Counted from the first letter of the stretch, positions 9,531 to 62,487 are shown. The stretch is 63,032 nucleotides of DNA from an uncultured Lachnospiraceae bacterium (GCA_964422365.1 CAYRAV010000013.1:1-63032); one strand, 5' to 3'. Notes: generated by a model not told the origin, from the letters alone. Numbers and translations: made by a program.

Positions 9531-9550
9531 GATATTCAAACACGCTCCAG
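9531..9550 (+). repeat. Solo MITE terminal repeat (right-end type)
   Basis: attcaaacacgctcca matches the MITE terminal repeat. Confidence 0.4.
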
Positions 9551-9676
9551 GGTGTATCTGAAAATCAGGCAAACAGCATTTGAATGAGATATGCTGTTTG
9601 CAGTAATAGCTATTCAGACACACACTAAAAATAAGACTGTAAAATGCAAATGTGTTTTAACGGAAAAGAAAAATTC

Positions 9677-10117
9677 TCACAGATAGCATCGAAGTTCTTT
9701 GCACAGTTGTTCCTCGATATCTGACAGCCGGCTGCAAATTTCTTTAGAAACATTATCAGCAGCCTTATATTGGTTTAAATATTTATGAAGAGATTTGATT
9801 CCCATATTGCATCCATCAGTAATTAAATCTGCAACAGCAGAATCACTTCCATCCATACTCATTTTCATGTTTGTTTTCAACCAGGACATTCCTTTTGCCA
9901 TAGGACTAGGGTCTTTTTCCTCGCTGTTATGCTGCAGTAACAGACTGTGGATTTCATTTCCTAATTTTTCGTGATGACTCTTACTTTCTGTTAATAATTT
10001 TTTCATGTTACAATCGCTGATTTTATCCAATACTTCATCAATGGAAGATACTGCCATTTTTGTACCAGCATCACATTCTTTTAGTAAATATACAGTATCA
10101 TTGTTATTATTTATCAT
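9677..10117 (-). CDS. Hypothetical protein (helical, about 146 aa)
   Basis: Start set at the ATG that follows GGAGG. No recognisable motif. Confidence 0.55.
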   Translation of the reverse strand: MINNNNDTVYLLKECDAGTKMAVSSIDEVLDKISDCNMKKLLTESKSHHEKLGNEIHSLLLQHNSEEKDPSPMAKGMSWLKTNMKMSMDGSDSAVADLITDGCNMGIKSLHKYLNQYKAADNVSKEICSRLSDIEEQLCKELRCYL

Positions 10118-10182
10118 AATTATTCCTCCATTTATTTTCATTTACTATTATCAAGTTTGTCCAAATTTAAAAATAATATGAG

Positions 10183-10240
10183 TAACAGTTCAGCCCTGCA
10201 GAAACAATTGTGCAATATGCATGTGGGAGCATGCTCACTA
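10183..10240 (+). repeat. Motif-B repeat copy 2
   Basis: TAACAGTTCAGCCCTGCAGAAACAATTGTGCAATATGCATGTGGGAGCATGCTCAC. Contains an internal imperfect inverted repeat with ccattgtttct at 10251-10265. Confidence 0.7.
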
Positions 10241-10524
10241 AGGGAATATTGTACCATTGTTTCTATAGGATGGACACCTGACTAGAGTATTGACATGGTA
10301 TGAGTGCGTAGTAAAATATAGGAAATGAAAGAAGAATGGATTCGTTTGAAAAACTTTAAGATAAATGATATTATAAATGTAGCAGTGTAGAGATACCATT
10401 TATATATGAATAATTTGTTCAGCCAAATTATAGATTTTTAGTGATAATCATACAGCCAGTAAATGATACTATTTGGGCATACTCGGTTGGATTTGGATAT
10501 ACTGCAATTTATGTTTATTTGGAC

Positions 10525-10700
10525 TAGAGTGTGTTTGAAAATTGCGTTCTATTCATTAATATGCTAAAATACAAAGTAAATTATGTGGAAATCCAACATG
10601 TTTTCATACAATAATCAGAAATTTCCTATAGTTACCATTTCATATAACCGTAGAGATTTTTTATATTTACTGTGCAGTTTTTAATTTACAAATACACTCT
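10525..10700 (+). mobile_element. MITE copy (divergent interior lacking the hairpin)
   Basis: Left terminus TAGAGTGTGTTTGAAAATT. Right terminus ACAAATACACTCTA. Flanked by TA on both sides. Confidence 0.55.
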
Positions 10701-10865
10701 AGCGGACTTTGCTTGTGATAAGTGGATACCATAATGGATGTGTTTTTTGCTGAAAAAATAAGGGTGAATGGTATGGATGAATATATATTTGATAATATAA
10801 CAAAAGAGTTTCTTTTATCCTTTAATGGGATTGTGTAATAGAGAAACAACAATACGGAGGAAGAT

Positions 10866-11678
10866 ATGGTTAAAAGAAGAATAAATAATTTTAGTCTGTC
10901 ACAAATCTGCCAGTCGGGACAGTGTTTTCGCATGATGAAAAAGAACGAGAATAGGTACAGTGTGATTGCGGGTGGATGGTATTTAGAACTTGAGCAGCAG
11001 GAAAAGGAGTGTATTTTTTATTGTGATGAGGATGAGTTTGAAAATTTCTGGAAAGAATATTTTGATTTAGAGGGAAATTATTCAGCTTATATTGAGCAGA
11101 TTAATCCCAAAGATACATATCTGCTCCATGCAGCAGCTTTTGGTTCCGGGATTCGAATTTTACGGCAGGATTTGTGGGAGATGATAGTTTCTTTTTTGAT
11201 TTCGCAACAAAATAATATTATACGGATTAGAAAATGTATCCAAAATATCTGTGAGCATTATGGCGAGCAAAAGGTAAATGTGTGGGGAGAGAAGTATTAT
11301 ACATTTCCAAGTGCGGAATCTTTGGCAGGGTTAGAGGAGGATGCTTTAAAGGAGTGTAATCTGGGTTACCGCAGTAAATATGTAGTCCGTACTTCCAGAA
11401 GCATCGTTTCAGGTGAATTAGATTTAGATGCGGTTCGGGGGATGTCCTATAAGAAAGCTAAGGAAGAGCTGCTGAAGTTATTTGGAGTTGGAGAGAAGGT
11501 AGCAGATTGTATCTGCCTTTTTGCCCTACACCACTTACAGGCGTTTCCTATTGATACCCATATTAGTCAGGCATTGGAAAATCATTATAAGAAAGGATTT
11601 CCGAATCGTAGATACAATGGTTATCAGGGAGTGATGCAGCAGTATATATTTTATTATGAATTGCTTGGAGAGAAGTAG
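10866..11678 (+). CDS. 8-oxoguanine DNA glycosylase / HhH-GPD base-excision repair enzyme (Ogg family)
   Basis: HhH-GPD motif (GVGEKVADCICLFAL-D-FPIDTH) with a catalytic Lys/Asp context. Confidence 0.75.
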   Translation: MVKRRINNFSLSQICQSGQCFRMMKKNENRYSVIAGGWYLELEQQEKECIFYCDEDEFENFWKEYFDLEGNYSAYIEQINPKDTYLLHAAAFGSGIRILRQDLWEMIVSFLISQQNNIIRIRKCIQNICEHYGEQKVNVWGEKYYTFPSAESLAGLEEDALKECNLGYRSKYVVRTSRSIVSGELDLDAVRGMSYKKAKEELLKLFGVGEKVADCICLFALHHLQAFPIDTHISQALENHYKKGFPNRRYNGYQGVMQQYIFYYELLGEK

Positions 11679-11803
11679 AGAATGTTTTCTGTTTGTAAAT
11701 GTCTGGATTTTTTTGGAATATTAAAAGAAGCCGATATTATCCTTATGAATTTATAGCATTTATTAAATAAAGGGGAATCTAAAAACTGCATAGAAATAAG
11801 AAT

Positions 11804-11966
11804 GAGAGGTTTAAGAAAATTCATTGCCCCAATCTGCACGTCCACTTTGCGTGTATATTTGCCCCAAATTCATTCAATGTAGCCCGCTATACCTCATGAA
11901 TTTGGAACAAATCCCCCACAAATTGTGACATACATCTTGTAACAAGCAATTTTCAAACACACTTTG
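11804..11966 (+). mobile_element. MITE copy (degenerate left terminus)
   Basis: Interior cattgccccaatctgcacg...ccaaattcattcaatgtagcccgctatacctcatgaatttgg...gcaattttcaaacacac matches the family consensus. Confidence 0.7.
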
Positions 11967-12012
11967 GTGTACATGAAAAATTTAAAAATCGAATGAAATT
12001 GGAGGAACGAAA

Positions 12013-12603
12013 ATGACTGAGAAAGAGAAAATGTTAAAACAGCTTATGTATGATGCAAATTATGATGAAGAATTAATAAATGATAGAGCAAACTGCAAGG
12101 ATATGTGTTACGACTATAATTTGCTGCGTCCTTCTGAAACTGAAAAGCAGACAGAAGTAATGAAGAAATTATTAGGAAAAACACATGGAGATTTCTGTAT
12201 TGTAGCTCCTTTTTGGTGTGATTATGGTTATAACATTGAAATTGGTGAGAATTTTTTTGCCAATCATAATCTGGTGATTTTAGATGGAGCAAAAGTTACC
12301 TTTGGAAACAATGTATTTGTGGCACCAAATTGTGGATTTCATACAGCTGGGCATCCAATTGATTATGAACGCAGAAATCAGGGATTGGAATATGCATATC
12401 CGATTACAGTTGGTGATAATGTTTGGATTGGTGCGGGGGTGCAGGTTATGCCAGGAGTTACAATAGGAAACAATGTAGTCATTGGCGGTGGAAGTGTTGT
12501 GGTAAAAGATATTCCAGACAATTCGGTAGCTGTTGGTAATCCATGTAAGGTAGTCAGAGTAATTACCGAAGAAGATAAGAAAAGAGATTATGATCGTGAA
12601 TGA
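12013..12603 (+). CDS. Maltose/galactoside O-acetyltransferase (hexapeptide-repeat transferase)
   Basis: Left-handed beta-helix hexapeptide repeats (VWIGAGVQVMPGVTIGNNVVIGGGSVV) and a Maa-like N-terminus. Confidence 0.85.
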   Translation: MTEKEKMLKQLMYDANYDEELINDRANCKDMCYDYNLLRPSETEKQTEVMKKLLGKTHGDFCIVAPFWCDYGYNIEIGENFFANHNLVILDGAKVTFGNNVFVAPNCGFHTAGHPIDYERRNQGLEYAYPITVGDNVWIGAGVQVMPGVTIGNNVVIGGGSVVVKDIPDNSVAVGNPCKVVRVITEEDKKRDYDRE

Positions 12604-12638
12604 AGTTTAAACAATGGATGATGCAGAAGTGGAGATGA

Positions 12639-14009
12639 ATGAAATTGAGTGGCAATGAGATCACAGCAAAGAAACGAAAACAGATGGATATGCTGCATGG
12701 AAAGTTAATGGATAAGCTGTTATTGTTTGCTTTGCCGTTGGCAGCAAGTAGTGTTTTACAGCAATTATTTAATTCTGTGGATGTAGCAGTAGTGGGACAT
12801 TATGCTGAAAGTCAGGCACAGGCTGCGGTAGGATGCAATGGTTCTGTTATCAATTTATTGTTGAATCTTTTTGTAGGAATATCAGTAGGTGCCAATGTAG
12901 TAATTGCTGGCTATATTGGACAGGAGCGAAAAGATAAAGTCAAAGAAACTGTTCACACTGCAATGGTGGTTGCCTTGTTCAGTGGAATTATGCTGTTGTT
13001 TTTGGGAATTTTGATTGCAAGGCCGATTCTCACATGGATGGATACACCAGAAGATGTGATAGAGCAGGCAGTATTATATCTTCAGATTTATTTTGTTGGA
13101 ATGCCTTTTATTATGATTTATAACTTTGGCGCTGCCATTCTTAGAAGTATTGGAGATACCAAAAGACCACTTTACTGTCTGATTATATCAGGAATGGTGA
13201 ATGCAGGATTAAATATGTTTCTTGTTATTGTATTTCACTTAGGAGTAGCAGGAGTTGGCATTGCTACAGTAATATCAAATATCATCAGTGCATCAATAGT
13301 GCTGTATTTTCTGACCCATGAACAGGGAATCATACATCTTTCATTAAAAGAACTTAGTGTCAAAAAAACGGAACTGATAAAGATTTTAAAAATTGGGGTA
13401 CCAGCAGGATTGCAGTCTATGGTATTTTCTGCTGCCAATGTTTTTATTCAAAAGGCATTAAATGGATATGGTTCGGATGCAGTAGCCGGTTCTGCAGTAG
13501 CCCTTAATTTTGAATACTATTCTTATTTTGTGGTGTCAGCATTTGGACAAGCAACCGTCACCTTTACCAGCCAGAACTTTGGTGCAAAACAATATGACCG
13601 CTGTAAAAAGATTTTTAAGCAGACATCATTTATGAGTGTCTTTGTCATAGGGTGTATGAGCATGATTTTCTTATTAGGACAAAGTTTTTTTATCAAATTA
13701 TTTACATCAAAACCAAAAGTGGCAGAATATGCATCTATCCGTATGGTATATCTGCTTACACTATATATTTTGCTTCCGATATACGAAATTGGCGGTGCTG
13801 CCCTTAGGGGAATTGGTTATTCAATGACTCCAGCTATATTGACTATATTTGGAACCTGTATTTTCCGCCTGACATGGGTTTATACAATATGCAAAAGGTA
13901 TACAGGTTTTAAGACTTTATTGTTGGTTTATCCTATTTCATGGGCAATTACGGGTGCAGCTGTGTTAACTGCTTATTTTATGATACGGCGAAAGGTGTTT
14001 GCAAAATGA
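12639..14009 (+). CDS. MATE family efflux transporter
   Basis: 12-TM composition with MATE N-terminal signature (LLFALPLAASSVLQQLFNSVD). The true start may be the ATG at 12687. Confidence 0.85.
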   Translation: MKLSGNEITAKKRKQMDMLHGKLMDKLLLFALPLAASSVLQQLFNSVDVAVVGHYAESQAQAAVGCNGSVINLLLNLFVGISVGANVVIAGYIGQERKDKVKETVHTAMVVALFSGIMLLFLGILIARPILTWMDTPEDVIEQAVLYLQIYFVGMPFIMIYNFGAAILRSIGDTKRPLYCLIISGMVNAGLNMFLVIVFHLGVAGVGIATVISNIISASIVLYFLTHEQGIIHLSLKELSVKKTELIKILKIGVPAGLQSMVFSAANVFIQKALNGYGSDAVAGSAVALNFEYYSYFVVSAFGQATVTFTSQNFGAKQYDRCKKIFKQTSFMSVFVIGCMSMIFLLGQSFFIKLFTSKPKVAEYASIRMVYLLTLYILLPIYEIGGAALRGIGYSMTPAILTIFGTCIFRLTWVYTICKRYTGFKTLLLVYPISWAITGAAVLTAYFMIRRKVFAK

Positions 14010-14039
14010 GAATTGTTTCATGTGAATTGAGAGGATATT

Positions 14040-14807
14040 ATGAATTTACAAATGGATCAGAGAATTGCTGAACAGTATAATAGCAATTCACAAAAAATAC
14101 GTGTTATTACAGAGCATTGGGTGCATAAGAATTTGTTTTGCCCATATTGTGGAAATCAGTATATTAGTCATTTTGAAAATAATAGACCAGTTGCAGACTT
14201 TTATTGCCCTCATTGTTTGGAAGAATATGAACTAAAAAGTAAAAATGGGCCTATTACTGCTAAAATAACTGCTGGTGCATATGCAACAATGATAGAGCGG
14301 ATTGAATCAATTAATCATCCTAATTTTTTCTTTATGCATTATAATAAGTCAGATTTAAGCGTGAAAAATTTTATTATGGTTCCAAAACACTTTTTCTCTA
14401 CAGAAATTATTGAGAAAAGAAAGCCCTTAGCAGATACTGCAAGAAGAGCAGGCTGGGTTGGATGCAATATTGTATTGAAGCAAATTCCAGAAGAAGGGAG
14501 AATCTATATTATTAAAAATGGGATAGAACAACCAATAAAGGATGTTATAGTGAAGGTAAATAAGACAAACTTCATTAGGGATTATAAATTGGATGCCAGA
14601 GGTTGGATTTTAGATGTCCTGAATTGTGTTAATAAAATAGATTCAAGAGATTTTACATTGAAACAGATATATGAATTTGAACAAATGCTTGCAGAAAAGC
14701 ATCCTAAAAATTATCATGTTAAAGATAAGATAAGGCAGCAGCTTCAGATTCTTAGGGATAAAGGAATTATTGAATTTAATGGAAGAGGATGCTATAAGAA
14801 GGTATAG
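14040..14807 (+). CDS. DpnI-type methyl-directed (Type IIM) restriction endonuclease homologue
   Basis: 255 aa. PD-(D/E)xK motif with D53, E64 and K66 (PVADFYCPHCLEEYELK), at the same positions as the DpnI catalytic residues. C-terminal winged-helix region (KIRQQLQILRDKGIIEF). Family identification is from memory. Confidence 0.75.
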   Translation: MNLQMDQRIAEQYNSNSQKIRVITEHWVHKNLFCPYCGNQYISHFENNRPVADFYCPHCLEEYELKSKNGPITAKITAGAYATMIERIESINHPNFFFMHYNKSDLSVKNFIMVPKHFFSTEIIEKRKPLADTARRAGWVGCNIVLKQIPEEGRIYIIKNGIEQPIKDVIVKVNKTNFIRDYKLDARGWILDVLNCVNKIDSRDFTLKQIYEFEQMLAEKHPKNYHVKDKIRQQLQILRDKGIIEFNGRGCYKKV

Positions 14808-14885
14808 TAGTTCTATGTGTTACAATAATTTTTAGTTATAAAAAACAATTCTTGTTGAACCATCAGAAAGTAAAAGGAGAAAAGG

Positions 14886-16208
14886 ATGTATACATTTCTA
14901 AATGTCATATTTGATATAAAGCAAAAATTTTCAACTGTTCTTCCAATTGTTTTGGATGTATTACAGGAAAAGAATTGGGAGAATGAAAGAGTTTTGTTTC
15001 ATTTTGCGGATGTTAATGATGCGGAAACAGAAAGGCGGACAGTACATGCAAAGTTATGTAAGGCATTTCCCCAGATGGTTCCTTATTGGAAAAGCGGATT
15101 AGAGGAACATAAGAGAGTTCATCTAAATTGTGATTGTTATCCGCATCAGTTTAGCTATTTTTCAAATTTTCCAAGTAGAGTGGGTGGAGAATGTGTTTTA
15201 AAAGCCGTGGATAAACAAATTAATAATAACTTGATATTGCAAATTAGCAAGAAGATTCCTAACCCCTATTCTTTGTATGGGGCAGTGATTGTCTTAGATG
15301 GAATTAACTGGAATACAGACAATGACCAGTTGCCAGTTTGGGATTGGCGTTATGATTTGAATGAATATGATACAAAAATAACAGATAATCAGGAACAGGA
15401 ATATGGCATGAACATGTCTTATTATCCAGCATGTTCTGAGTATCAAAATAATAGTATCATTTTATCAAAAGTTTTTGATACAAAACCAGAACTGGAACTT
15501 CGGATCAAATTAACACCATCACATAATCAGATAGAAGTTGAACGAATTGTCAGTGTATTTGCCCAACATTTTGGGACACCCGAAAAGAAATATGTAACTA
15601 TAGTTCCCTCAATTAAAGAGAAAAAAGAGTACTGCCTAAATCAAAATAAGATGAAAGAAATTTATAAAAAATGGAGAACGCAGATGGAAGAAGAATTAAA
15701 TTGTGTTGTACTTCAGATGAAGAATGATTTGGAGGGAATGAGTGAAACACAGAGAAGGAAAAACGTCAGCAGGAAAACAATACAAAAACATTTCCTTGAG
15801 AAAAATGGATTGAAACGTCATAAGATACATCGATGGGATGATCATGGATGGTATAAGATTCTGCCTCATAATTATTGGATGTATGTAGAGATGTATATAC
15901 AACCCAAGCCTCAGGATACAGGATATAAGAATGAAAGCTGGATTGAAGTGGTGTGTTATGGAATGAATTTTGACTTACATGACAGGATAGTAATAAATAA
16001 TTTTGCTAGTCAATTTGGAGATGTTGCTGCAATCATAACATTCGAAAAATTTCAGCGTTTTTTCAATAAGTTTGAGAAAGAGGTTATACCAAAACTGGCA
16101 GAGATTTTTGGGGATACACAATCAGAGTTTTATCAGGAATCATACGAAAGGACATTTCATTTTCATAAATATATGATTCATCTGGAAAAACACAATAATG
16201 TTCTTTGA
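14886..16208 (+). CDS. Hypothetical 440-aa protein with no recognisable domain, adjacent to the DpnI homologue
   Basis: Long ORF with RBS AAAGGAGAAAAGG, 78 bp downstream of the DpnI-like gene on the same strand. Confidence 0.65.
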   Translation: MYTFLNVIFDIKQKFSTVLPIVLDVLQEKNWENERVLFHFADVNDAETERRTVHAKLCKAFPQMVPYWKSGLEEHKRVHLNCDCYPHQFSYFSNFPSRVGGECVLKAVDKQINNNLILQISKKIPNPYSLYGAVIVLDGINWNTDNDQLPVWDWRYDLNEYDTKITDNQEQEYGMNMSYYPACSEYQNNSIILSKVFDTKPELELRIKLTPSHNQIEVERIVSVFAQHFGTPEKKYVTIVPSIKEKKEYCLNQNKMKEIYKKWRTQMEEELNCVVLQMKNDLEGMSETQRRKNVSRKTIQKHFLEKNGLKRHKIHRWDDHGWYKILPHNYWMYVEMYIQPKPQDTGYKNESWIEVVCYGMNFDLHDRIVINNFASQFGDVAAIITFEKFQRFFNKFEKEVIPKLAEIFGDTQSEFYQESYERTFHFHKYMIHLEKHNNVL

Positions 16209-16257
16209 ACGAAATAAGGGAGCATATTGATGTAAAAAAATTGATGGAGGAAAACAA

Positions 16258-20377: not shown

Positions 20378-21322
20378 ATGATGTATTGGTTTCTCGTTTC
20401 TGCCATTATAATAGGTGGATATTTTGCACTTCGTTACTTTTTGATAAAGCATGCACTTAGAGAAGTAAACGAGGAACTGCAGGATATATATAAAGACATG
20501 GCACAAAATCAGATTCTTCATTTGCCAATGCCTGACCGGGATTTGGAACGGCTTATGCTTTCTATGAATGCCGCTTTGGAAGAAGTGCGTAAGGAACGCC
20601 AAAGCTATGAGAAACGTGAGAAGGAATTTCAAGAACAGATAGAAAATATCAGCCATGATTTAAGGACACCTTTGACAGTCATCCTGGGTTATATAAGATT
20701 AATGAAGAAATCTAAAAGGGAAAGGGATTTAGGTCAAGATCAGATAGAGTCACTGGAGATCATAGAAAGAAAAGCAAGATCTATGGAAAAATTGGTAACA
20801 CAGTTTTATGCATATTCCCGTCTGAGGGCTCAAGATTGTCAGTTAATCATACATGAGGTGGATGTTTGCAGGATTTTAAGGGAAAGTATCATTGATAATT
20901 ATCAGATTCTGGAAAAGGCACAATTGAAAGTTGACAGCAGGCTGCCGGAGCACCCTGTAATGGTTCAGGCAGAAGCCAGTGCATTAGAGCGGATATTTTC
21001 TAATCTGTTTCAAAATGCTGGACGATATGCAGATAGCTTTCTGGATATTCAGATAAAAGAAAGCGGTGAAAAGACACTTATTACTTTAGTAAATGATACA
21101 GATAAGATTTCCGAAGAAGAAATTTCCCATTTGTTTGACCGCTTTTATGTGCAGGATGATGCCAGGAATCAAGATGGCACAGGATTGGGGCTGACAGTTG
21201 CAAGGTCTTTGGCAGAAGCTATGGATGGTACATTAACGGCTGAGATTGTAAAGGAGCAGCAAAGAAAGAATGGGGTAAAAAATGTTATAATTTGTTTTAA
21301 CTTGTCTTTAAAAAATGTTTAA
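20378..21322 (+). CDS. Sensor histidine kinase (intramembrane-sensing type)
   Basis: Short TM N-terminus. HisKA H-box ISHDLRTPLTVILGY. HATPase_c N/G boxes. Confidence 0.85.
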   Translation: MMYWFLVSAIIIGGYFALRYFLIKHALREVNEELQDIYKDMAQNQILHLPMPDRDLERLMLSMNAALEEVRKERQSYEKREKEFQEQIENISHDLRTPLTVILGYIRLMKKSKRERDLGQDQIESLEIIERKARSMEKLVTQFYAYSRLRAQDCQLIIHEVDVCRILRESIIDNYQILEKAQLKVDSRLPEHPVMVQAEASALERIFSNLFQNAGRYADSFLDIQIKESGEKTLITLVNDTDKISEEEISHLFDRFYVQDDARNQDGTGLGLTVARSLAEAMDGTLTAEIVKEQQRKNGVKNVIICFNLSLKNV

Positions 21323-23129: not shown

Positions 23130-23292
23130 TAGAGCGTGTTTGAAAATTTGCTGCCACAGTCTGCCAGTTTCATTTTGTGGTATATTAGCCTCCAATTTAA
23201 TCAATACAGTCCGCTGTACCTCATAAATTTGCGATAAATTCCTGCAAATTGTGACATATATCTTTCGGAAGGCAATTTTCAAACACACTCTG
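23130..23292 (+). mobile_element. MITE copy
   Basis: TAGAGCGTGTTTGAAAATT...GGCAATTTTCAAACACACTC. Confidence 0.8.
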
Positions 23293-38123: not shown

Positions 38124-38290
38124 ACAAAATCCTCCTTGTATTATAATAGAATTATTTTGAATTGTTTACATTTATAAGGCAAATACCTGACAATAGAGAG
38201 CTTGTTTTATTGCATGATTCAGAATAATTGTTAAATTATAACAAAAAATAAAACTTCTTCCAATTCCTTTATTTCCAAACACACAGATGG

Positions 38291-38316
38291 GGCAATGAAT
38301 TTCCAAACACACTCTA
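38291..38316 (-). repeat. Solo MITE terminal repeat
   Basis: ggcaatgaatttccaaacacactcta. Confidence 0.45.
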
Positions 38317-38555: not shown

Positions 38556-38906
38556 TAAAGCATGTTTGAAAATTAAAAATTGTACAAAAAATACCAAAAA
38601 TGTCTGTGATAATAGAGTGAGAATCATAGGAAATTCCCCATTATTGTATGAATGTAGGTTTGATTTTCACATAATTTATGCAATTTTTTGGCATATTGAT
38701 TGTTACAAGATGTATGTCACAATTTGTGGGGGATTTGTTCCAAATTCATGAGGTGTAGCAGGCTGCATTGAAGCAATTTGGAGCAAATATTCATCTTTAT
38801 CGGACGAAGTCCAGAGCATCCTGAATGGGCATGAATTGTGATATGCCTGGATAGGTACGCAAAGTGAGATATGCAGATTGGGCAATGAATGATCAAACAT
38901 GCTATT
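38556..38906 (-). mobile_element. MITE copy in reverse orientation carrying a roughly 120-bp internal insertion
   Basis: Reverse-complement consensus (ttgttacaagatgtatgtcacaatttgtggggga...ccaaattcatgagg...gcaatgaatgatcaaacatgc). Confidence 0.65.
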
Positions 38907-43905: not shown

Positions 43906-43920
43906 TAGAGCGTGTTTGCA
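43906..43920 (+). repeat. Solo MITE terminal repeat (left-end type)
   Basis: tagagcgtgtttgca. Confidence 0.4.
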
Positions 43921-43989
43921 CAAATAAAAGTCAGGTTACTTAGAGTTTCGCAATTGTCTAAGTATAAGAATAAGAAGGAGGTATATCAA

Positions 43990-49025: not shown

Positions 49026-49188
49026 TGGAGTGTGTTTGGAAATTCACTGCCATAATCTGCACCCTCTGCTTTGTGTGTATATTTGCCCAAATTCATTCAA
49101 TCCAGCCTGCTGCACATCATGAATCTAGAGTGAATCCCCACAAATTGTGACACACATTTTGTAACAAGCAATTTTTCAACACGCTTTA
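49026..49188 (+). mobile_element. MITE copy
   Basis: TGGAGTGTGTTTGGAAATTC...GCAATTTTTCAACACGCTTTA. Confidence 0.75.
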
Positions 49189-50812: not shown

Positions 50813-51141
50813 ACGTACTTTAATCTCATAAATGTAGAATTATCTTTTTGTAGGTGCATGCAGCTGTCTTGCAGTTACATTGCAATTTATAATATTGCTT
50901 GTAAAAATGGGGATACCGTATTCAACTTATTGTATGACATAAAAGAAATCACAGGATTCTGTAAGAGTTTTATTGTTACAGAATCAAGTTGCCGCCAATG
51001 CAGATTTTATTTGTATAAGGCAGCAGGTTTCGGACGCCTTGTACATTAAGCAATCCTTAACCAATTTTCCGCAATATGATAAAAACAAAAGGATAATTCT
51101 ATATGAAACACAGAGCATATGAAAAATATGGGGGAATTTTA

Positions 51142-52251
51142 ATGAAAATGATAGTAATAAAAGAAAAACAGGCAGGATATGTAATAAAAAATGGCATATT
51201 TGTGAAAATGATTACAGCAGGAAAATATTTCTATCCAAAGGCACTAGGATATGAAGTTATAATAGAAGAAATGCTAGGAGAAACAGAGGGCATAGAGCTG
51301 CCATATGAAGTGCTGATAAAAGACAAAAAATATAAAGAATCTGTTATTCGTTTTCAAATACCAGATGGTTCGATTGGATTAATTTATGTAAATGGGATAT
51401 TGAGAACATTTGCAACAAGAAAAGAATACATATTTTGGAATGTATATGAAACTTATGACATAAAACTTATTTCTATGGAAGAAACAGAAATAAACAAGAC
51501 AATAACAAAACAGATGCTTTCTGTTATTCCAAGAACGTATTATACTCAAATATGTGTGGAAGAAGGGGAAACAGGATTATTGTATTACAACAATATTCTA
51601 CAGCGACAGTTAGAACCTGGTATTTATTACTTTTGGAATTACAAAGTAGCTGTTACTTATAGAATTGTAAGCCTTAAGTTGAATGAACTTAATATAATTG
51701 GACAGGAAATTTTAACAAAAGATAAGATAGGAATTAGAATGAATGTAGTATGCTCCTATAAAATCACAGATGCAGTGGGAGTGGCATGCCAGATTACAGA
51801 TCTGGCAAAACAATTGTATTCCTATATCCAGTTAGTAATCAGGGAGTTAGTTGGAAATTATAAATTAGATGAAATATTAGAGCAGAAAAGTAAAATTTCG
51901 GAAGAAATATATGAGAAGCTGAAGAAAAGAGAAACAGAACTTTATGTAGAATTTCTTTCATCAGGAATAAAGGACATTATCTTACCGGGAGAAATAAGAG
52001 ATATTATGAATACTGTACTAGTTGCAGAAAAAACTGCTCAGGCAAATGTTATTACAAGAAGAGAAGAGGTTGCATCTACCCGGTCTTTACTTAATACTGC
52101 AAAATTGATGGAGGAAAATAAAACATTATATAAATTAAAAGAATTAGAATATCTCGAAAAAATCTGCACGAAGGTAGGAGAAATATCTGTGAATGGAAAT
52201 GCAGGACTAATTGAACAATTAAGTATGTTAATAGGAGACAGACAACCATAA
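51142..52251 (+). CDS. SPFH/band-7 (slipin/flotillin-like) domain protein
   Basis: SPFH core followed by a coiled-coil (ILPGEIRDIMNTVLVAEKTAQANVITRREE). Confidence 0.7.
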   Translation: MKMIVIKEKQAGYVIKNGIFVKMITAGKYFYPKALGYEVIIEEMLGETEGIELPYEVLIKDKKYKESVIRFQIPDGSIGLIYVNGILRTFATRKEYIFWNVYETYDIKLISMEETEINKTITKQMLSVIPRTYYTQICVEEGETGLLYYNNILQRQLEPGIYYFWNYKVAVTYRIVSLKLNELNIIGQEILTKDKIGIRMNVVCSYKITDAVGVACQITDLAKQLYSYIQLVIRELVGNYKLDEILEQKSKISEEIYEKLKKRETELYVEFLSSGIKDIILPGEIRDIMNTVLVAEKTAQANVITRREEVASTRSLLNTAKLMEENKTLYKLKELEYLEKICTKVGEISVNGNAGLIEQLSMLIGDRQP

Positions 52252-52370
52252 AATGCTTGTTACAAGATGTGCATCACAATTTGTGGGGGGATTTGGTCCA
52301 AATTCATGAGGCATAACAGGTTATATTGAATGAATTTGAATCAAATATCTGCACAAAGTGGGGCATACAT
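52251..52370 (-). mobile_element. Truncated MITE copy in reverse orientation
   Basis: gcttgttacaagatgtgcatcacaatttgtgggggg...ccaaattcatgagg. Begins at the last base of the SPFH stop codon. Confidence 0.55.
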
Positions 52371-52375
52371 CTTGT

Positions 52376-52407
52376 ACAATTGTTTCTGCATGGCTGAATT
52401 GTTACAT
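52376..52407 (-). repeat. Motif-B repeat copy 4 (short, reverse orientation), fused to the truncated MITE
   Basis: acaattgtttctgcatggctgaattgttacat is the reverse complement of TGTAACAGTTCAGCCGTGCAGAAACAATTGT. Confidence 0.55.
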
Positions 52408-53370: not shown

Positions 53371-53392
53371 TAGATAGAATGGAATTGTATTG

Positions 53393-54158: not shown

Positions 54159-54169
54159 TGGTGCAAATA

Positions 54170-54952: not shown

Positions 54953-54965
54953 AAGAAAATGAAAC

Positions 54966-55035: not shown

Positions 55036-55103
55036 TTTGGAAACAGCAGTCAATCAATAGATACAAATAATGAATATCAAATAAGAAAGAGCATGGTATA
55101 TGT

Positions 55104-55329
55104 TAGAGCGTGTTTGAAAATTCATTGCCACAATCTGAACGCTCCAATTTGTGTACCCATCCGGACATACCGAAATCCATGCCTATTCAGGCTGGCGGAC
55201 TTTGTTCAATAAGGTATGGATATTTGTTCCAAAATCATTCAATGCAGCCCGCTGCATCTCATGAATTTGGAACAATCCCCACAAATTGTGACGCACATCT
55301 TTTAACAAGCAATTTTCAAACACGCTCTA
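55104..55329 (+). mobile_element. MITE copy (long variant with a roughly 65-bp internal module)
   Basis: Perfect 19-bp terminal inverted repeats TAGAGCGTGTTTGAAAATT/AATTTTCAAACACGCTCTA with TA flanks. Confidence 0.85.
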
Positions 55330-55354
55330 GGATACCATGCTCTTTATGGAATAA

Positions 55355-56131: not shown

Positions 56132-56632
56132 ACTATCAACCTTCCTTTCATTAATTCTGGAAATATCGTGAAAAATAAAAATTTTCATGATTTTCACATA
56201 GTATCAATAATTGTAAGTTTTCATATAATAACGTGTAACATTATATCGATAAAAGGGGAGAAAGTCAAGAAAGTAGTGAAAAAGATTGAAAAACCGGCAG
56301 AATAGTAACCTAAAATATTACAATTTTTCTTTAATTTTCCAGAATATGTACTTTGAACAAAAAATCTGTTAATTAACAGTTAAATTACTTATTCTGGCTG
56401 TTTGATTTATAGAAAAAGTTGTGTAATCTGCCTTTAATAAACAAGATTGTATGTACAGAGTATTCAATTATTTGTATATGGTTAAACCATAACTAAAAAA
56501 TAAATAAAGCAGAAATATTTACAATGCTAAAAACTTGACGTATAATATATGTGGGACTCAATTTCGAAAGAAATAAGAAACCATGATAAAATTAAAATTT
56601 AGATTGAAAAACAAGGAAAGGTTGGAGAGCAT

Positions 56633-56860
56633 ATGAAAAGAATTGAATTATCACCATATGGAGTAAGAATTGTAAAAGAGGCATTTAGCGATTACAGTCT
56701 AACAGAACTGAAGTATATGTGTGTGGATCCAGATGGAGAAAACTATAAAGTGGGTTTTTCTGTAGTTGCGGGAAATCGTCTGAAATTAAATGATGGAACA
56801 GATACAGTTGTTATTTCAGGGAATAAGATGGCAGAGATTTTATTTCAACTGCTAGATTAG
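56633..56860 (+). CDS. Small hypothetical protein (75 aa)
   Basis: RBS AAGGAAAGG. Confidence 0.45.
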   Translation: MKRIELSPYGVRIVKEAFSDYSLTELKYMCVDPDGENYKVGFSVVAGNRLKLNDGTDTVVISGNKMAEILFQLLD

Positions 56861-56877
56861 AAGTTACATAATACTCC

Positions 56878-57056
56878 TGTCAAATGCTGCCACAATTTAT
56901 GTCATTTGGGCTGGCAGACTTTGTTCAATAAAGTATGGTGTTGGCCTAAATTCATTTCGTGCAGTCCGTTGCACCTCATGAATTTGGAACAAATTTTTCA
57001 CAAATTGTCATACTCATCTTGTAACAAGTAATTTTCAAACATGTCAGGTGTATATG
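56878..57056 (+). mobile_element. MITE copy (5'-degenerate; contains the same internal module as 55104)
   Basis: tgccacaatttatg...ctggcagactttgttcaataaagtatgg...ccgttgcacctcatgaatttgg...gtaattttcaaacatgtc. Confidence 0.65.
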
Positions 57057-57514
57057 GAACTGTAATAAATTTAAAGAAGATATTGTAATAAAATGCTGTA
57101 GTATTAACAATCAAAATTGCGAATACCATAGCATTTTATTATTTCTATAAGAAAGTCCGATGTCTGACATGAACAATTCTTGATAATATAGAAAGATTGC
57201 TTTCTATATGTATGTTTCGGTCAATCCATAACTTTTTTGTTAAAAATATATCTTTTGGTAAATAATACTTATTTGGTATACCTGGTTGGGCATACCATGG
57301 TTCATGTTCATTTGGGATGACAGACTTTATCTAATAATGGATACCATAATAGGTATACTCATACTGGAAAATAAGGTTGAATGACAAGAATGAACTGTAA
57401 TTTTTTGTTTAAAAAAACTAAAATGGGGGGTAGTGTTTTTAATCATTCTTTGATATAATAAGTAATGTTACGTAAAAATGTGTTAAGAGTATATAGATGC
57501 AAGGAGAATCGGTC

Positions 57515-58672
57515 ATGAAAGAAAAACAAAAGAAATCTGTTTTGAGCTATGATATAGAAGAATTAATAAAAAAAGGAGAGGATTTGGCGGAAAATACAGA
57601 AAAATCTGAAGATTCGGTAATATATGCATTAAGCTGCTATTCGGTGGAAGATTTAAAAGACATTGCAAAACAACATGGGCTGAAGGGGTATTCAAAGTTA
57701 AAGAAAAAGGAACTTATGAGTGCAGTGGTTGGCTGTATTTTGGATGAGAATATTGCAAAAGAGTATTTTATGAATGCTAAAGAAAGAGAATATGATTTTT
57801 TTGATAGATTGTACAGTGGGAAATTAGAAAATGAGACAATTGGTGCAGCACAGTATTTGTACTGGATAGATGGAGGTTATCTTTTTATTCAGGATGATGT
57901 GAATATCACGATATTAAAAGAGACAAAAGCACTATATAAAAAAATTAATACAAAAGCTTTTCAAAAAAAGAGAAAGAATTTTAGAATGGTTTCAGATTAT
58001 TTGCTGGCATGTAAAAATTTATATGGCATCTTTTCTATAGAGAAATTTTTAGAGATTTATAATGGACAGAATGAAGATAAGATAAATAAGAGAACTGTAT
58101 TTGATGTGTTTCAGTCAATGTCAGAGGGTAATGATGGTTTGATATTGCAAGATGATATTTTTATTGAAAGTTCCTTGATTGAGTATAAAGAATATGAGAC
58201 ACTGAAAAATCAACAAGGCGACAAACCTTTTTATATTCCAGAGCAAAAAGTGTTTCTACAATATGCAGATGATGCATATATGGAACATAATCCACAATTT
58301 GAAGTTTTAAAGAGATATCTTATAAGGAAGAAAAAAGTAGAGGAGAAATTTGCAGTTCAATTGTGCACAGTTATCCGGGAAGATTTTATTGTAGGTATTC
58401 CGTTGCAAGATGTGGTTGCACATTTTGATGAGGCAGAAATTACATGGACTAGTGAAAAGCAGTTTGATGAAATGCTGGAAATTTTGGTAAAATGCTATAA
58501 TAATACAAGAATGATAGGTAATCGTGGATACACCCCAAATGAAATCGCTGCGTTTCATCAAAGTGAGCCTGCAATGCAGCGCAATACATTACAGGGAGGC
58601 AGTAAAATATATCCAAATGACAAATGTCCATGTGGAAGCGGGAAAAAGTATAAACATTGTTGTGGAAAATAA
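57515..58672 (+). CDS. SEC-C metal-binding motif protein (YecA-like C-terminus)
   Basis: C-terminal CPCGSGKKYKHCCG. Start set at the ATG after AAGGAGAA. Confidence 0.65.
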   Translation: MKEKQKKSVLSYDIEELIKKGEDLAENTEKSEDSVIYALSCYSVEDLKDIAKQHGLKGYSKLKKKELMSAVVGCILDENIAKEYFMNAKEREYDFFDRLYSGKLENETIGAAQYLYWIDGGYLFIQDDVNITILKETKALYKKINTKAFQKKRKNFRMVSDYLLACKNLYGIFSIEKFLEIYNGQNEDKINKRTVFDVFQSMSEGNDGLILQDDIFIESSLIEYKEYETLKNQQGDKPFYIPEQKVFLQYADDAYMEHNPQFEVLKRYLIRKKKVEEKFAVQLCTVIREDFIVGIPLQDVVAHFDEAEITWTSEKQFDEMLEILVKCYNNTRMIGNRGYTPNEIAAFHQSEPAMQRNTLQGGSKIYPNDKCPCGSGKKYKHCCGK

Positions 58673-59054
58673 GACTGTTGCAGAAGGCAGATGGTGCAAT
58701 ATATCATTATGGTTTATTGCACCTTTGTCTGATGTACAGTCTTTTTGTATAAAATGCATGTTTTGGAAAATATATCCAGTTGTGCCATACTTTTATTTCC
58801 TATGAGAAAACAAATTGCTTTGTATGTGGCTGGCAAAGCAGAAATGCTTGTATTTCTATTGATAACTACCACAAGGGTTAAAAGGGGCTGCCACATTAAA
58901 ATCAAATGATACCATATATCGTTTATAGATAAAATATCAATAACTATATATAGTACCATTTTGACTTAATGCGACAGTCCCATTTGACTTTTAAAGAAAG
59001 TATGGTAGAATTATTGAAAAGCGCATAAGATTTCACAAAGAAAAGGGGATGGGT

Positions 59055-59324
59055 ATGGCAGAAAAAGATTTTGAGGAAGCATTTGAGGAAGTGTATCGGA
59101 TCAATGCAGTTGGCAGAGGTGGCAGCACAGCACATCAAATATATGAAGATATTAGAACAATAAAAATGTTTTATTTAAAAAAAGTTATAGAAGAGTATTG
59201 TTTAGAGGAAAAGGAATATGACAGAGTTGAAATTGTTGAAGATTCAGAAAAATTAAAATATCAGGTTCTGTTGGATGGAAAAGAAGTATGGCAGTTTCGC
59301 ATAAAAATTAGAAATCAAAGATAA
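59055..59324 (+). CDS. Small hypothetical protein
   Basis: ORF with RBS AAAGGGGATGGG. Confidence 0.4.
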   Translation: MAEKDFEEAFEEVYRINAVGRGGSTAHQIYEDIRTIKMFYLKKVIEEYCLEEKEYDRVEIVEDSEKLKYQVLLDGKEVWQFRIKIRNQR

Positions 59325-59346
59325 GAAAGCAGCAGGTAGAAATAGT

Positions 59347-59778
59347 ATGAAAATAGTTTATCAAAAAGCAAGGAAAGAAGATGCACAAGTTCTTGCTAAA
59401 ATGACAGAAGAATTAGTAGGAAATAATTCCGATTTAAAAAAGCTGGAAGATACTTTAGAAATGCTTTTTGAAAAAGAAGAATATTATATAGTAACAGCGC
59501 ATTGTAATGGAAAAGTAGTTGGCATGAGTCAGGGAATCATCTGCCATGATATTTGCGAAGATTGTAGAAATTTTCTTGTAATTGAGAATGTATATGTTCA
59601 AGAAGAATACAGAGGACAGCATGTTGCAGAAGGAATTTTTGAAGAATTGGAAAATTGGGGCAGGACACATAATTGTTACTATGCAATTTTGGTTTCTGAA
59701 AATAAGAGGGAACGGGCACATAGCTTTTATCAAAAGATAGGATATAAAAAAGAAGGTGGATTTAGAAAATATTTATGA
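59347..59778 (+). CDS. GNAT family N-acetyltransferase
   Basis: Acetyl-CoA-binding motif A-like region (RGQHVAEGIFEELENW). Confidence 0.75.
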   Translation: MKIVYQKARKEDAQVLAKMTEELVGNNSDLKKLEDTLEMLFEKEEYYIVTAHCNGKVVGMSQGIICHDICEDCRNFLVIENVYVQEEYRGQHVAEGIFEELENWGRTHNCYYAILVSENKRERAHSFYQKIGYKKEGGFRKYL

Positions 59779-60542
59779 ATACAGTATTTATTAGTGGAGC
59801 ATCTTCGGGAATCGGAGAGGCATTAGCAGAAGAATTTGCAAAACATAACTACCGATTGGTATTAACAGCAAGAAATAAGGACAAGTTGATACGGATAAAA
59901 AGGAATTTGGAAATAAAATACCAAGTCAGGGTAATTGTATTTGCCGCTGATATTTCAAAAAAAGAAGAGAGAATAGTATTGTGTGAAGAAATGAAGAAAA
60001 GAAGGCTTGTAATTGATGTGGCAGTAAACAATGCTGGAATTGGATTAAGTGGAAGTTTTTTAGAGCAATCGGAAGAAAAATTACAAGAAATGATGAGATT
60101 GAATATGGAAACACTTACAATGCTTACAAAATTTTTTTGGAAGGATATGAAAAAAAGAAGAAAAGGAAAAATCATTAATATAGCTTCTACAGGTGCTTAT
60201 CATCCAGGACCATATACAGCTGTATATTATGCAACAAAGGCATATGTACTTTCTTTTACAGAGGCGGCTGCAAGAGAGGGAAAACGTGACAATGTACAGA
60301 TAACAGCGGTCTGTCCTGGAGCTGTGAAGACACAGTTTGCAAAATGTGCAGGACGCAGAAATAATGCTTTAGCAGATACACCTCAAAAGGTAGCAGAACA
60401 CATCTATAAAAAAGCAGTAATCGGACAACAAAAAACTGTTTTCATTGGTCTAAAATATTGCATATGGATAAGATTCCCAAGAAGGATTGCATCGTTCTTA
60501 ATAGAGAGACAACAAAGAAGGTTATTGATAAATGATAACTAG
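59775..60542 (+). CDS. SDR family oxidoreductase; its TAG stop codon is supplied by the MITE terminus
   Basis: TGxxxGIG (SGASSGIGEAL), NNAG, YxxxK (YYATK). Stop TAG at 60540-60542 is the first 3 nt of a MITE terminal repeat. Confidence 0.85.
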   Translation: MNTVFISGASSGIGEALAEEFAKHNYRLVLTARNKDKLIRIKRNLEIKYQVRVIVFAADISKKEERIVLCEEMKKRRLVIDVAVNNAGIGLSGSFLEQSEEKLQEMMRLNMETLTMLTKFFWKDMKKRRKGKIINIASTGAYHPGPYTAVYYATKAYVLSFTEAAAREGKRDNVQITAVCPGAVKTQFAKCAGRRNNALADTPQKVAEHIYKKAVIGQQKTVFIGLKYCIWIRFPRRIASFLIERQQRRLLINDN

Positions 60543-60650
60543 AGCGTGTTTGAAAATTCATTGCTACAATCTGCATGTCCTGCTTTGCGTGTATATTTAC
60601 CCCAAATTCTCCACAGATTATGATGTACATCTTGTAAAAAGCAATTTCAG
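60540..60650 (+). mobile_element. Truncated MITE copy (left terminal repeat intact, hairpin and right end missing)
   Basis: TAGAGCGTGTTTGAAAATTCATTGCTACAATCTGCA...gtacatcttgtaaaaagcaattt. Confidence 0.7.
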
Positions 60651-60742
60651 TTATGTTCTATGTGGGAAGAAAACTACAGTGATTTGAGTTTTTTGAATGT
60701 TCTGGGAAATCGTTTCAGATAACAATTAAAGCAGGATAAGAG

Positions 60743-60931
60743 GTGGTTTTGGTGGAAAATAGTTTAGTAGAGGACAAAATAAGCGAAATATTTGACGAAA
60801 AAGCAAAAGAAAAAATTTTGGAAAGAAAAGTGACACCACAAAAAATAGTATGTCCTGAATGTGGAGGAATCACCATCGAAGGGTTAGATTTCTGCCATAA
60901 GTGCGGAGGTGTGGAGGTTACAGGAATATAA
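60743..60931 (+). CDS. Small zinc-ribbon protein (62 aa)
   Basis: CPECGG...CHKCGG. GTG start after AGGATAAGAGG. Confidence 0.4.
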   Translation: MVLVENSLVEDKISEIFDEKAKEKILERKVTPQKIVCPECGGITIEGLDFCHKCGGVEVTGI

Positions 60932-61090
60932 GAGTAAAATAAAAATAGAAAAAAGGAAAATAAGCAAACACATAGTATTACTTTTGATATCTGTACCTAC
61001 CAAATATAAGTGAGTTTATAATTAAATAGACTGATTAGCAGGCCTAAGTTTGAGTGAGTATGGAATAAAGATGAACTAGGAGGAGATAAA

Positions 61091-62281
61091 ATGATTGCAA
61101 GAGGAATGTTGAAATATGTAGAAAATAGTTCTGTTATTAGAGCTATGTTTGAAGAAGGAAAGAAAATGGCTGCAATATATGGTGCAGAAAATGTTTATGA
61201 TTTTAGTTTGGGAAATCCCAGTGTAGAGCCGCCAAAAGCAGTAAAAGAAACAATTGTTTCTCTATTAGAAGAAGAAAAGCCTAATGTGTTACATGGATAT
61301 ATGAATAACTCAGGTTACGAAGAAGTAAGAACGGCTATTGCAGAATCTATTAATAAAAAGCATGATACTAATCTTAATGAAGATAATATTTTAATGACTG
61401 TTGGTGCAGCAGGAGGATTGAATGTAATTTTAAAAACGTTATTAGATCCAGAGGATGAAGTGATTGTATTTGCCCCCTTCTTTGGGGAATACGTGAATTA
61501 TGTAGCAAATTTTTCAGGAAAAGTGGTGATTGTACCAGCAAATACAGAAGATTTCCAGATTAATCTGGCCGCTTTTGCCAATTCCATTACATCAAAAACA
61601 AAAGCTGTAATTATAAATAATCCAAATAACCCTACAGGAGTAGTGTATTCTGAATATACCATTATGGCTTTGTCAGAAATTTTATATAAAAAACAGCATG
61701 AATATGGAACTTCTATTTACCTAATTTCAGATGAACCATATAGGGAATTGGTGTATGATGGAGTAGAAGTTCCATATCTTGTAAAGTATTATGACAATAC
61801 GATTATCGGTTATTCATATAGTAAGTCATTGTCCCTGCCAGGAGAGAGAATTGGCTATCTTGTGATGCCATCTTCGTTAGATGATTATAAAAATATTATT
61901 GCAGCTGCTAATGTGGCGAATCGGATTCTGGGTTTTGTCAATGCACCTTCTCTCATGCAGAAAGTTGTCGCACAATGCTTAAATGAAGAAGTGGATATAG
62001 AAGCCTATAATAAAAACAGAGAGTTATTGTATACAGAACTCACAAAATATGGATATGAATGTGTCAAGCCGCAAGGAGCATTTTACTTGTTTGTAAAAGC
62101 ATTAGAAGAAGATGACCATATTTTTGCAGAAAAGGCGAAAAAACATAATCTGCTTCTTGTTCCAGGAAGCTCATTCTATTGTAGTGGATATGTAAGAATT
62201 TCATATTGTGTGGATTATGATATGATGAAACGTTCCCTGCCAGCATTCAAGGCACTGGCACAGGAATATAAGAAAAATTAG
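61091..62281 (+). CDS. Pyridoxal-phosphate-dependent aminotransferase (class I/II, aspartate aminotransferase fold)
   Basis: PLP-lysine context YSYSKSLSLPGERIGY. RBS AGGAGG. Confidence 0.85.
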   Translation: MIARGMLKYVENSSVIRAMFEEGKKMAAIYGAENVYDFSLGNPSVEPPKAVKETIVSLLEEEKPNVLHGYMNNSGYEEVRTAIAESINKKHDTNLNEDNILMTVGAAGGLNVILKTLLDPEDEVIVFAPFFGEYVNYVANFSGKVVIVPANTEDFQINLAAFANSITSKTKAVIINNPNNPTGVVYSEYTIMALSEILYKKQHEYGTSIYLISDEPYRELVYDGVEVPYLVKYYDNTIIGYSYSKSLSLPGERIGYLVMPSSLDDYKNIIAAANVANRILGFVNAPSLMQKVVAQCLNEEVDIEAYNKNRELLYTELTKYGYECVKPQGAFYLFVKALEEDDHIFAEKAKKHNLLLVPGSSFYCSGYVRISYCVDYDMMKRSLPAFKALAQEYKKN

Positions 62282-62322
62282 CTTAATATTGACAAAATTT
62301 TTTAGGTTGTTTAGAGATGCTT

Positions 62323-62487
62323 TAGAGCGTGTTTGAAAATTTATTATCACAATCTGCACACCTTCATTTTGCACGGATATTAGGTCCAAATTCATTCAAT
62401 GCAGCCCGCTGCACCTCATGAAATTGGACCTAATATCCCACAAATTGTAACACACATCTTGAACAAGCAATTTTCAAACACGATCAA
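62323..62487 (+). mobile_element. MITE copy
   Basis: TAGAGCGTGTTTGAAAATT...hairpin ccaaattcattcaatgcagcccgctgcacctcatgaaattgg...GCAATTTTCAAACACGATCA. Confidence 0.8.

Follow-up and report, generated by a model that had tools for sequence, protein, structure and literature searches.

A contig of 63,032 nt from an uncultured Lachnospiraceae bacterium (GCA_964422365.1 CAYRAV010000013.1:1-63032; "the window" below means this whole stretch of DNA) carries a dense family of short, mostly intergenic repeats bounded by 19-bp terminal inverted repeats. Our analysis indicates that these repeats are very probably non-autonomous miniature inverted-repeat transposable elements (MITEs) that exploit the ends of a small insertion sequence (IS) of the IS5 family from Lachnospiraceae-type Clostridia, with which they share their terminal inverted repeats. 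The original prediction, made from the window alone, had described a MITE-like family and assigned its origin to IS630/Tc1/mariner-type elements. The first of these ideas is borne out by the features of the family, which is multi-copy, non-coding and bounded by inverted repeats with TA at both ends. The second is unsupported, because an IS bounded by the same ends passes the NCBIfam model NF033580 for IS5-family transposases and matches no IS630 model.

The 19-nt end, TAGAGCGTGTTTGAAAATT, matches the window 15 times with up to three mismatches, as against 0.08 matches expected, and none of 100 shuffled sequences reached 15, in agreement with the proposed multi-copy family with 19-bp terminal inverted repeats. 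Inverted pairs of this end (10525/10701, 23130/23292, 49026/49188, 55104/55329 and 62323/62487) are spaced 163-226 nt apart. A direct-repeat finder run on the window recovered the central hairpin block in 8 copies and the block beginning cacaaattgtgac likewise in 8, and aligning the nine long copies of the window gave a consensus of about 165 nt. Using a profile built from 41 copies, we obtained matches at 11815-11965, 23130-23291, 38557-38903 (minus strand), 49027-49188, 52250-52376 (minus strand), 55104-55329, 56941-57043, 60540-60647 and 62323-62485, with weaker remnants at 9527-9627, 38279-38316 and 43906-43922. Overall, the repeat of roughly 164 nt is present in nine long copies in the window, which also contains an element of a second type at 10525 and several remnants of ends. 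These elements are 163-226 nt long, or 348 nt for a composite copy, and hold only spurious short open reading frames (ORFs), with no transposase coding capacity. The earlier statement that all copies are intergenic is nearly right, though several touch or overlap the ends of mechanically listed ORFs by 2-40 nt. The TA dinucleotides, previously taken to be flanks lying outside the 19-nt repeat, are in fact the outermost two bases of the 19-mer itself.

Among the first 112 loci listed from other genomes (loci are given L numbers here), there were no end pairs 300-4000 nt apart that could represent a parent IS. The partner IS was reached by following solo ends that run into transposase ORFs, searching with the encoded protein, and examining the contigs of the homologues. 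In L096, L073 and L101, a solo end is followed by a short leader and then by an ORF starting MTRRYELTDQEW, a transposase N-terminus that matches Pfam DUF4096 (E = 3e-31), the N-terminal domain of IS4/IS5 transposases. In L055 and L071, solo ends adjoin a transposase C-terminus ending in RRIATRYDKLAYTYMGFVCLASILIWIK. A protein search with a composite query recovered proteins of 253-255 amino acids (aa), each encoded by a single ORF and 72-87% identical, the named homologues being annotated as 'IS5 family transposase' of Coprococcus, Enterocloster and Blautia. Complete copies of the IS lie at 1412-2293 of L116 (882 bp) and at 334-1219 of L121 (886 bp), both with perfect ends TAGAGCGTGTTTGAAAATT ... 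AATTTTCAAACACGCTCTA, and L117 and L118 contain an IS with the same ends at 1-3 mismatches. A two-ORF transposase with an A7G frameshift, considered on the basis of the decayed copy in L073, was rejected, as the intact relatives are single ORFs of 253-255 aa.

The IS is 882-886 bp in size, encodes one DDE transposase of 253-255 aa, and has termini that read GAGCG... when the TA is set aside, in line with IS5-family members, which measure about 0.8-1.5 kb and have terminal inverted repeats starting with GA or GG. Its products score 275.3, 275.9 and 289.1 bits against NF033580 (transpos_IS5_3), for which the cutoff is 110, and align with model positions 2-258 of 258. They also match Pfam DUF4096, DDE_Tnp_1 and DDE_Tnp_1_2, and no IS630 model was among the NCBIfam or Pfam matches of the partner transposase. 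An autonomous partner with matching ends, as sought by the original prediction, was thus found, in other genomes, though it belongs to the IS5 family and is not IS630/Tc1-like.

We propose that a transposase supplied in trans by a full-length IS would bind the two GAGCGTGTTTGAAAATT ends of a miniature copy and would excise or copy the element, which would then be inserted at a TA within C/T-TA-A/G with duplication of the TA. An effect of the internal hairpin on neighbouring transcripts or on replication is likely but would be secondary, filtering the insertions and orientations that survive. The miniature elements differ in how much of the IS they retain. Both the 10525 element and the odd end of the composite copy at 38556 align with the left end of the IS over about 38 nt (the repeat plus AAAAAnTGnACAAAAnATA), which makes them closer IS derivatives. 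The 10525 element had been regarded as a divergent copy of the main repeat; it lacks the 164-nt body, and beyond the common ends it has about 19 more bases in common with the left end of the IS.

The target site was assessed from 180 ends that have at most one mismatch in the 17-nt core of the repeat. The TA expected at newly found copies stands just outside this core in 173 of them. The base outward of the TA is C in 110 ends, T in 58, and A or G in 6 each, as compared to a pyrimidine background of about 48%, such that both sides read together give C/T-TA-element-TA-A/G. Longer duplications of 3 bp or 4 bp (TAG, CTA, CTAG) were considered and rejected: the outer base is other than C in 39% of ends (T in 32%, A and G in about 3% each), and the inner G/C is constant. 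Where two elements abut, at 1396-1431 of L117 and 5805-5840 of L038 (...CACGCTC TA GAGCGTG...), they overlap by exactly one TA, which is what insertion into a TA beside a resident copy would give. Resident copies thus offer a preferred C-TA target for new insertions. From the flanks and abutting copies only, we infer a probable 2-bp TA duplication at Y-TA-R sites (Y, pyrimidine; R, purine), for which the support is good. A candidate empty site that emerged from an all-against-all comparison of the fetched loci (L044/L082) proved to be a rearranged, truncated copy.

Elements of IS630 type, and the pneumococcal repeat RUP, yield TA at both ends with flanks of this kind, and both the TA and the C/T-TA-A/G preference are therefore what one would see if the MITE derived from an IS630/Tc1-mariner element whose transposase duplicates TA at CTAG-like sites. 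The flanks did not discriminate between the two families, however, as a C/T-TA-A/G duplication is also compatible with small IS5 members, subgroups of which make short duplications of 2-4 bp at a TA-containing target. Every coding element found with identical ends encodes an IS5-family transposase that passes NF033580, none matched an IS630 model, and the termini begin with GAG after the TA, as do the IS5-family ends tabulated in PMC4596501. An IS630-type origin is accordingly very unlikely.

The preferred target has a consequence for neighbouring genes. In six copies (the window copy at 60540 and those in L025, L048, L057 at 6321, L080 and L090), the stop codon of the upstream gene coincides with the terminal TA plus G of the element; in the window, the TAG at 60540-60542 is both the first three bases of the element and the stop of a dehydrogenase ORF (59775..60542). 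Stop codons are frequent insertion points, because A or G follows the TA in the target, and after insertion into the TA of a TAA or TAG stop the first G of the element rebuilds TAG and leaves the protein intact. Two apparent insertions within genes, in L030 and L074, were artefacts of upstream extension of the ORFs.

Copies beyond the window, which the MITE interpretation had called for, are plentiful. When one genome per species was scanned for exact matches, at least 112 stretches proved to carry the family, almost all from Lachnospiraceae, the carrier genera being Acetatifactor, Blautia, Otoolea, Robinsoniella, Fusicatenibacter, Eisenbergiella, Hungatella, Dorea, Enterocloster and Faecalicatena. 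Numerous matches fall within 30-110 nt of a contig end, as expected of a repeat that breaks assemblies. Among the matches listed, 43 of 69 end pairs span 160-169 nt, mostly exactly 164; some span 38-107 nt and represent deletion forms of the element, and a few are longer. Isolated exact matches to the 19-mer also occur outside Lachnospiraceae, in metagenome-assembled genomes (MAGs) of Acidobacteriota, Phototrophicaceae and Verrucomicrobiae (L005, L046 and L076), and in L046 there is a weak pair of ends spanning 168 nt (1 and 4 mismatches). Chance, contamination or binning errors probably account for these matches. Viral contigs gave 2 matches to the family, and the plasmid collection only distant ISLpl3-family and other IS5 genes (DNA identity of about 70-77% over 12-19% of the IS), so that no vehicle for spread is shown.

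Comparison of related genomes indicates that the copies have moved. In two sister species with 79-82% protein identity, the spacers orthologous to those holding the 55104, 56878, 60540 and 62323 copies are 24-104 nt long, as against 218-567 nt in the window. The window copies are therefore lineage-specific insertions, absent at these four sites. Presence/absence differences, proposed earlier as a check, are thus seen between species, while among the near-identical strains sampled the family is fixed, every strain having the same copies. One sister species (L122) has copies of its own at 15934-16091, 20765-20866 and 6912-6957, at sites unoccupied in or beyond the window, which implies that the family was active independently in both lineages. 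These observations bear on the alternative that the repeats are not mobile but are conserved intergenic regulatory or leader sequences, or REP-like elements served by a tyrosine-type enzyme. Conservation across genera and a mostly intergenic position would suit such sequences, but the ends are identical to those of a DDE-type IS, the genomic neighbours vary, copies are missing from orthologous sister-species sites, many contigs break inside the element, and tandem, convergent and divergent gene pairs all serve as contexts, making this alternative extremely unlikely.

The full-length window copies are only 65-75% identical to one another (61-73% in the interior), no closer than they are to copies from other genera. 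Most have mismatched or missing ends, two perfect ends being found only in the 55104 copy. Judging from this divergence, from the many truncated, recombined or indel-bearing copies and from the shared set of copies in all strains sampled, the family is old and decaying in this genome.

Beyond its ends, the 164-nt type is distinguished by its folding. Consensus folding with RNAalifold of 41 copies from many genomes gave 36 pairs and -26.7 kcal/mol for the strand written out in the original prediction, and an end-to-end rod of 54 pairs and -58.8 kcal/mol for the complementary strand (terminal inverted repeat followed by GCTTTCTG...). Single copies compared with shuffled sequences reach z = -9.1 (the 62323 copy) and -8.8. 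On the rod strand, 96.4% of pair cells are standard pairs, and 32 pairs are changed on both sides, compared to 15.2 +/- 2.0 in column shuffles (none of the 500 gave as many) and at most 17 with slid partners; the covariation score is 0.324 versus 0.157. A pairing constraint on the body of the element is well supported. In L058 (7362-7525) and L087 (5033-5196), the left arm reads CCAGATGCGCG in place of CCATCTGCACG and the right arm is changed to match (ACGCGTATCTG), a block of several coordinated changes that keeps the helix.

The strand asymmetry of folding is due to G-U pairs. On the rod strand, G-U cells number 305 and A-C cells 35, a G-U majority is seen at seven pair positions and an A-C majority nowhere, and the per-copy folding energy is -94.4 versus -65.3 kcal/mol, with the same strand more stable in all 41 copies. 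The stem formed by the terminal repeats is symmetric (8 G-U, 9 A-C), as expected for a double-stranded DNA site bound by a protein, whereas the interior is asymmetric (86 versus 24 cells at positions with a Watson-Crick majority). Counted by position, G-U exceeds A-C in the interior by 16 to 8 at such positions, a difference that is not significant by itself (p = 0.15), and the 41 copies are related by descent, so that cell counts overstate the number of independent events. Moreover, any transition from a G-U pair produces a Watson-Crick pair with no need for selection, and template-switch ('quasipalindrome') mutation can yield compensatory changes in inverted repeats, likewise without selection. 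Strand or RNA specificity of the pairing constraint is thus suggestive.

The orientation of copies relative to genes, determined from crude ORF calls, is also uneven. Between co-directional genes, the weaker-folding strand is the mRNA sense in 16 cases and the opposite in 2 among 47 curated copies, and the same bias is seen among 68 profile matches (18 to 6; p = 0.023). Such a bias fits purging of the strong rod from transcripts or from the lagging-strand template, with no distinction between the two.

Taken together, the fold, its covariation, the G-U excess confined to one strand, the symmetry of the repeat stem and the orientation bias are what would be expected if the family were at once mobile DNA and a functional structured RNA, with the 164-nt rod selected at the RNA level on one strand and spread by transposition. 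Roles open to such an RNA include a substrate for a double-strand-specific RNase, a transcript stabiliser or barrier, and an independently transcribed antisense RNA. The shared descent of the copies, the non-significant position count and the mutational routes to compensation all weaken this idea, and in tandem contexts the better-folding strand is usually antisense to the neighbouring genes. A scan for promoter and terminator consensus sequences found no excess over shuffles and none consistently tied to copies, and Rfam gave no match in the window at gathering thresholds, the matches at permissive thresholds being far sub-threshold chance ones, mostly to plant microRNA-precursor hairpins. 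We consider selection at the RNA level rather unlikely. A more specific form of it, in which the 164-nt body is a strand-specific rod RNA module spread by the IS5-family transposase, with its pairing under selection, its orientation filtered and an action on the genes nearby (through an antisense transcript, for instance, or by offering a target to a double-strand RNase), draws on the 32 covarying pairs and on the G-U asymmetry confined to the non-repeat part, and is decidedly doubtful.

Constraint at the level of DNA alone is another possibility, if on balance an improbable one. Here the element would have originated as a near-perfect foldback, intrastrand templated repair would restore its pairing, and copies would be purged if so oriented that the stronger hairpin falls in mRNA or on the lagging-strand template. 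In keeping with this, the whole element is palindromic, non-repeat body included, and the weaker-folding strand is co-oriented with genes, hence probably with replication, given a GC skew that stays positive across the window. The product of templated repair is Watson-Crick pairing, however, which leaves unexplained the seven conserved G-U positions found on one strand and not on the other, and the probable direction of replication applies to the window alone.

Several results weigh against the view that the repeats are MITEs mobilised by an IS5-family transposase. The 164-nt type has in common with the IS only its 19-nt ends, its interior being without similarity to it, so that these ends are the whole of what would connect this type to the IS5-family transposase. 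No full-length IS is present within the window. The predicted sequence of the unoccupied 55104 site had 0 matches in an exact scan of a metagenome collection, no empty site came from strains that share the flanking proteins, each of which has the copies or a contig that breaks inside them, and the sister-species spacers that have no copies are too diverged to align and thus give no base-precise one. Finally, compensatory variation and strand asymmetry are not needed by purely selfish DNA and are a hint of an additional constraint.

Full-text literature searches found no description of this 164-nt family, but there are related systems. BrickBuilt/MITEPgRS of Porphyromonas gingivalis and ATR of Neisseria meningitidis (parent ISNme1) are IS5-family-derived MITEs, and the window family resembles them in being short and non-coding, with ends that match IS5-family elements (resident ones for BrickBuilt and ATR), GAG termini and no transposase remnant (type II MITEs; PMC4596501). 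It differs from them in sequence, host lineage (Clostridia) and length, and it consists of a single rod of about 164 nt with a consistent TA flank, whereas BrickBuilt contains a minisatellite and has inconsistent duplications. The partner IS is similar to small transpos_IS5_3 elements such as the ISLpl3-like ones of lactobacilli in its DUF4096 N-terminus, GAG termini and end-to-end model match, but differs from them in DNA, with the low identity noted above for the plasmid matches (only about 70-77% over 12-19% of the IS).

Other comparisons concern the hairpin. Correia elements of Neisseria and the ERIC/IRU elements of enterobacteria are TA-flanked, inverted-repeat-bounded sequences of about 100-160 nt that lie between genes and are co-transcribed with them; their hairpins alter mRNA processing or stability in an orientation-dependent manner, and their transposases are unknown or different. 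They have no sequence relationship to the window family, and an orientation-dependent RNA effect of this type would be the most likely functional analogy for its hairpin. The bcr1 element of the Bacillus cereus group, a MITE-like Firmicute repeat of about 155 nt with a TTTAT duplication, has a conserved predicted RNA structure with compensatory changes, and we know of no parent IS with matching ends for it. Both bcr1 and the window family come from Firmicutes and have a predicted structure with compensatory changes, but their ends, target duplications and hosts differ. RUP of Streptococcus pneumoniae, with IS630-Spn1, is a Firmicute MITE with TA duplication and was the model implied by the original prediction; its partner belongs to the IS630 family, that of the window family to IS5.

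As it stands, the element is an ordinary MITE with an identified parent and an unusually well conserved hairpin. Its recognition accounts for repeats densely scattered between the genes of an uncultured, sporulating, Clostridium-type bacterium and for the spurious small ORFs listed there, and reassigns the mobilising enzyme from IS630 to IS5. What sets the family apart is its breadth across gut Lachnospiraceae and the unusually strong, strand-asymmetric covariation of its rod. A repeat common to so many genera of this group breaks assemblies and could confuse annotation and binning, and it lands on stop codons without destroying them. If the hairpin does act at the RNA level, the rewiring of operon expression by mobile hairpins could conveniently be studied with this family, as it occurs naturally in anaerobes that are abundant in the gut.

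Table 1. Copies and remnants of the repeat family in the window.
Position	Strand	Element	Remarks
9531..9549	-	solo terminal repeat, 3 mismatches	3 nt past the stop of ORF 8776..9528
9548..9627		degenerate short element, about 80 nt, end-like sequence on both sides	strand not assigned; weak profile match, E 0.3
10525..10701	-	second element type, 177 nt, same terminal repeats	flanks C-TA...TA-G
11804..11966	+	164-nt-type copy, left end degenerate	profile score 125.8
23130..23292	+	164-nt-type full-length copy, 163 nt	left end perfect, right end 2 mismatches
38270..38316	-	remnant: a terminal repeat and, 14 nt further on, part of a second one in direct orientation	
38556..38903	-	composite copy: 164-nt-type body with 64-nt module	
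43906..43918	+	13-nt terminal-repeat remnant (TAGAGCGTGTTTG)	start of chemotaxis-receptor ORF
49026..49188	+	164-nt-type full-length copy, 163 nt	3 mismatches per end; between divergent genes
52250..52376	-	copy without both terminal repeats	profile positions 26-150
55104..55329	+	best preserved copy, 226 nt, both ends perfect	64-nt module at about 55154-55217
56878..57043	+	copy with left end lost	64-nt module, then central hairpin and right arm; right end degenerate
60540..60647	+	copy with left end perfect, right end lost	central hairpin deleted
62323..62487	+	164-nt-type full-length copy, 165 nt	left end perfect, right end 2 mismatches; rod fold

Individual copies (Table 1) refine the earlier description in several respects. 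Three solo terminal repeats had been listed, at 9531, 38291 and 43906. The last amounts to 13 nt, the second is part of the remnant at 38270-38316, and the first adjoins the degenerate element at 9548..9627, which resembles the short 38-107-nt forms of other genomes. Hairpin deletions had been assigned to both the 10525 and 60540 copies; the 60540 copy does lack the central hairpin, while the 10525 element is of a different type, its 10701 side having kept about 38 nt from the autonomous IS, namely the repeat of the left end followed by AAAAACTGCACA.... An insert of roughly 120 bp recognised in the 38556 copy corresponds to an extra segment of about 135 nt at one end, where the right end of this composite is replaced by part of a 10525-type element with its own terminal repeat at 38556-38574. 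At 52250..52376, the copy runs into the stop codon of ORF 51103..52251 on one side and borders on a different repeat motif (52376-52405) on the other.

The 55104 copy lies between convergent genes, inside the loop of a 13-bp inverted repeat (AAGAGCATGGTAT / ATACCATGCTCTT; 55087-55103 and 55330-55343), an arrangement suggestive of insertion at the TA of a terminator-like hairpin that the two genes share. The module of about 65 bp claimed for the 55104 and 56878 copies is present there as a 64-nt module and occurs also in the 38556 copy. It (..CATACC..CATGCC.ATTCAGGCTGGCGGACTTTGTTCAATAAGGTATGG) occupies one and the same position in these three MITE copies (55154-55217, 56880-56940 and, on the minus strand, 38792-38856) and forms its own side hairpin. 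A solitary stretch at 57288-57343 is about 68% similar to it, and 'GCGGACTTTG' is found after the 10525 element as well. The module may represent a further small mobile repeat that has become nested within the MITE, or else a longer, ancestral form.

The window has about 33% G+C and encodes, side by side, the sporulation sigma factors sigE (6311-7051) and sigG (7160-7939), from which we infer that the host is a sporulating Firmicute. A 69-nt direct repeat (6940-7008 / 7834-7902) reflects the paralogy of these two genes and is unrelated to the MITE. Proteins identical to those of the window are found only on metagenome contigs, the nearest named RecQ homologue (from a 'Clostridiales bacterium' MAG) being 58% identical. 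A separate motif of about 45-54 nt (ATATGTAACAGTTCAGCCnTGCAGAAACAATTGT...TATGCA..TGGGA) is present in three copies, at 2073-2126, 10175-10228 and, on the minus strand, 52376-52405, with none expected by chance. Its 'GCAGAAACAATTG' is loosely like the MITE end 'GTTTGAAAATTG', and its third copy adjoins the repeat-less MITE copy at 52250-52376; the motif may mark the terminus of a sister family that has diverged, or may have a regulatory role.

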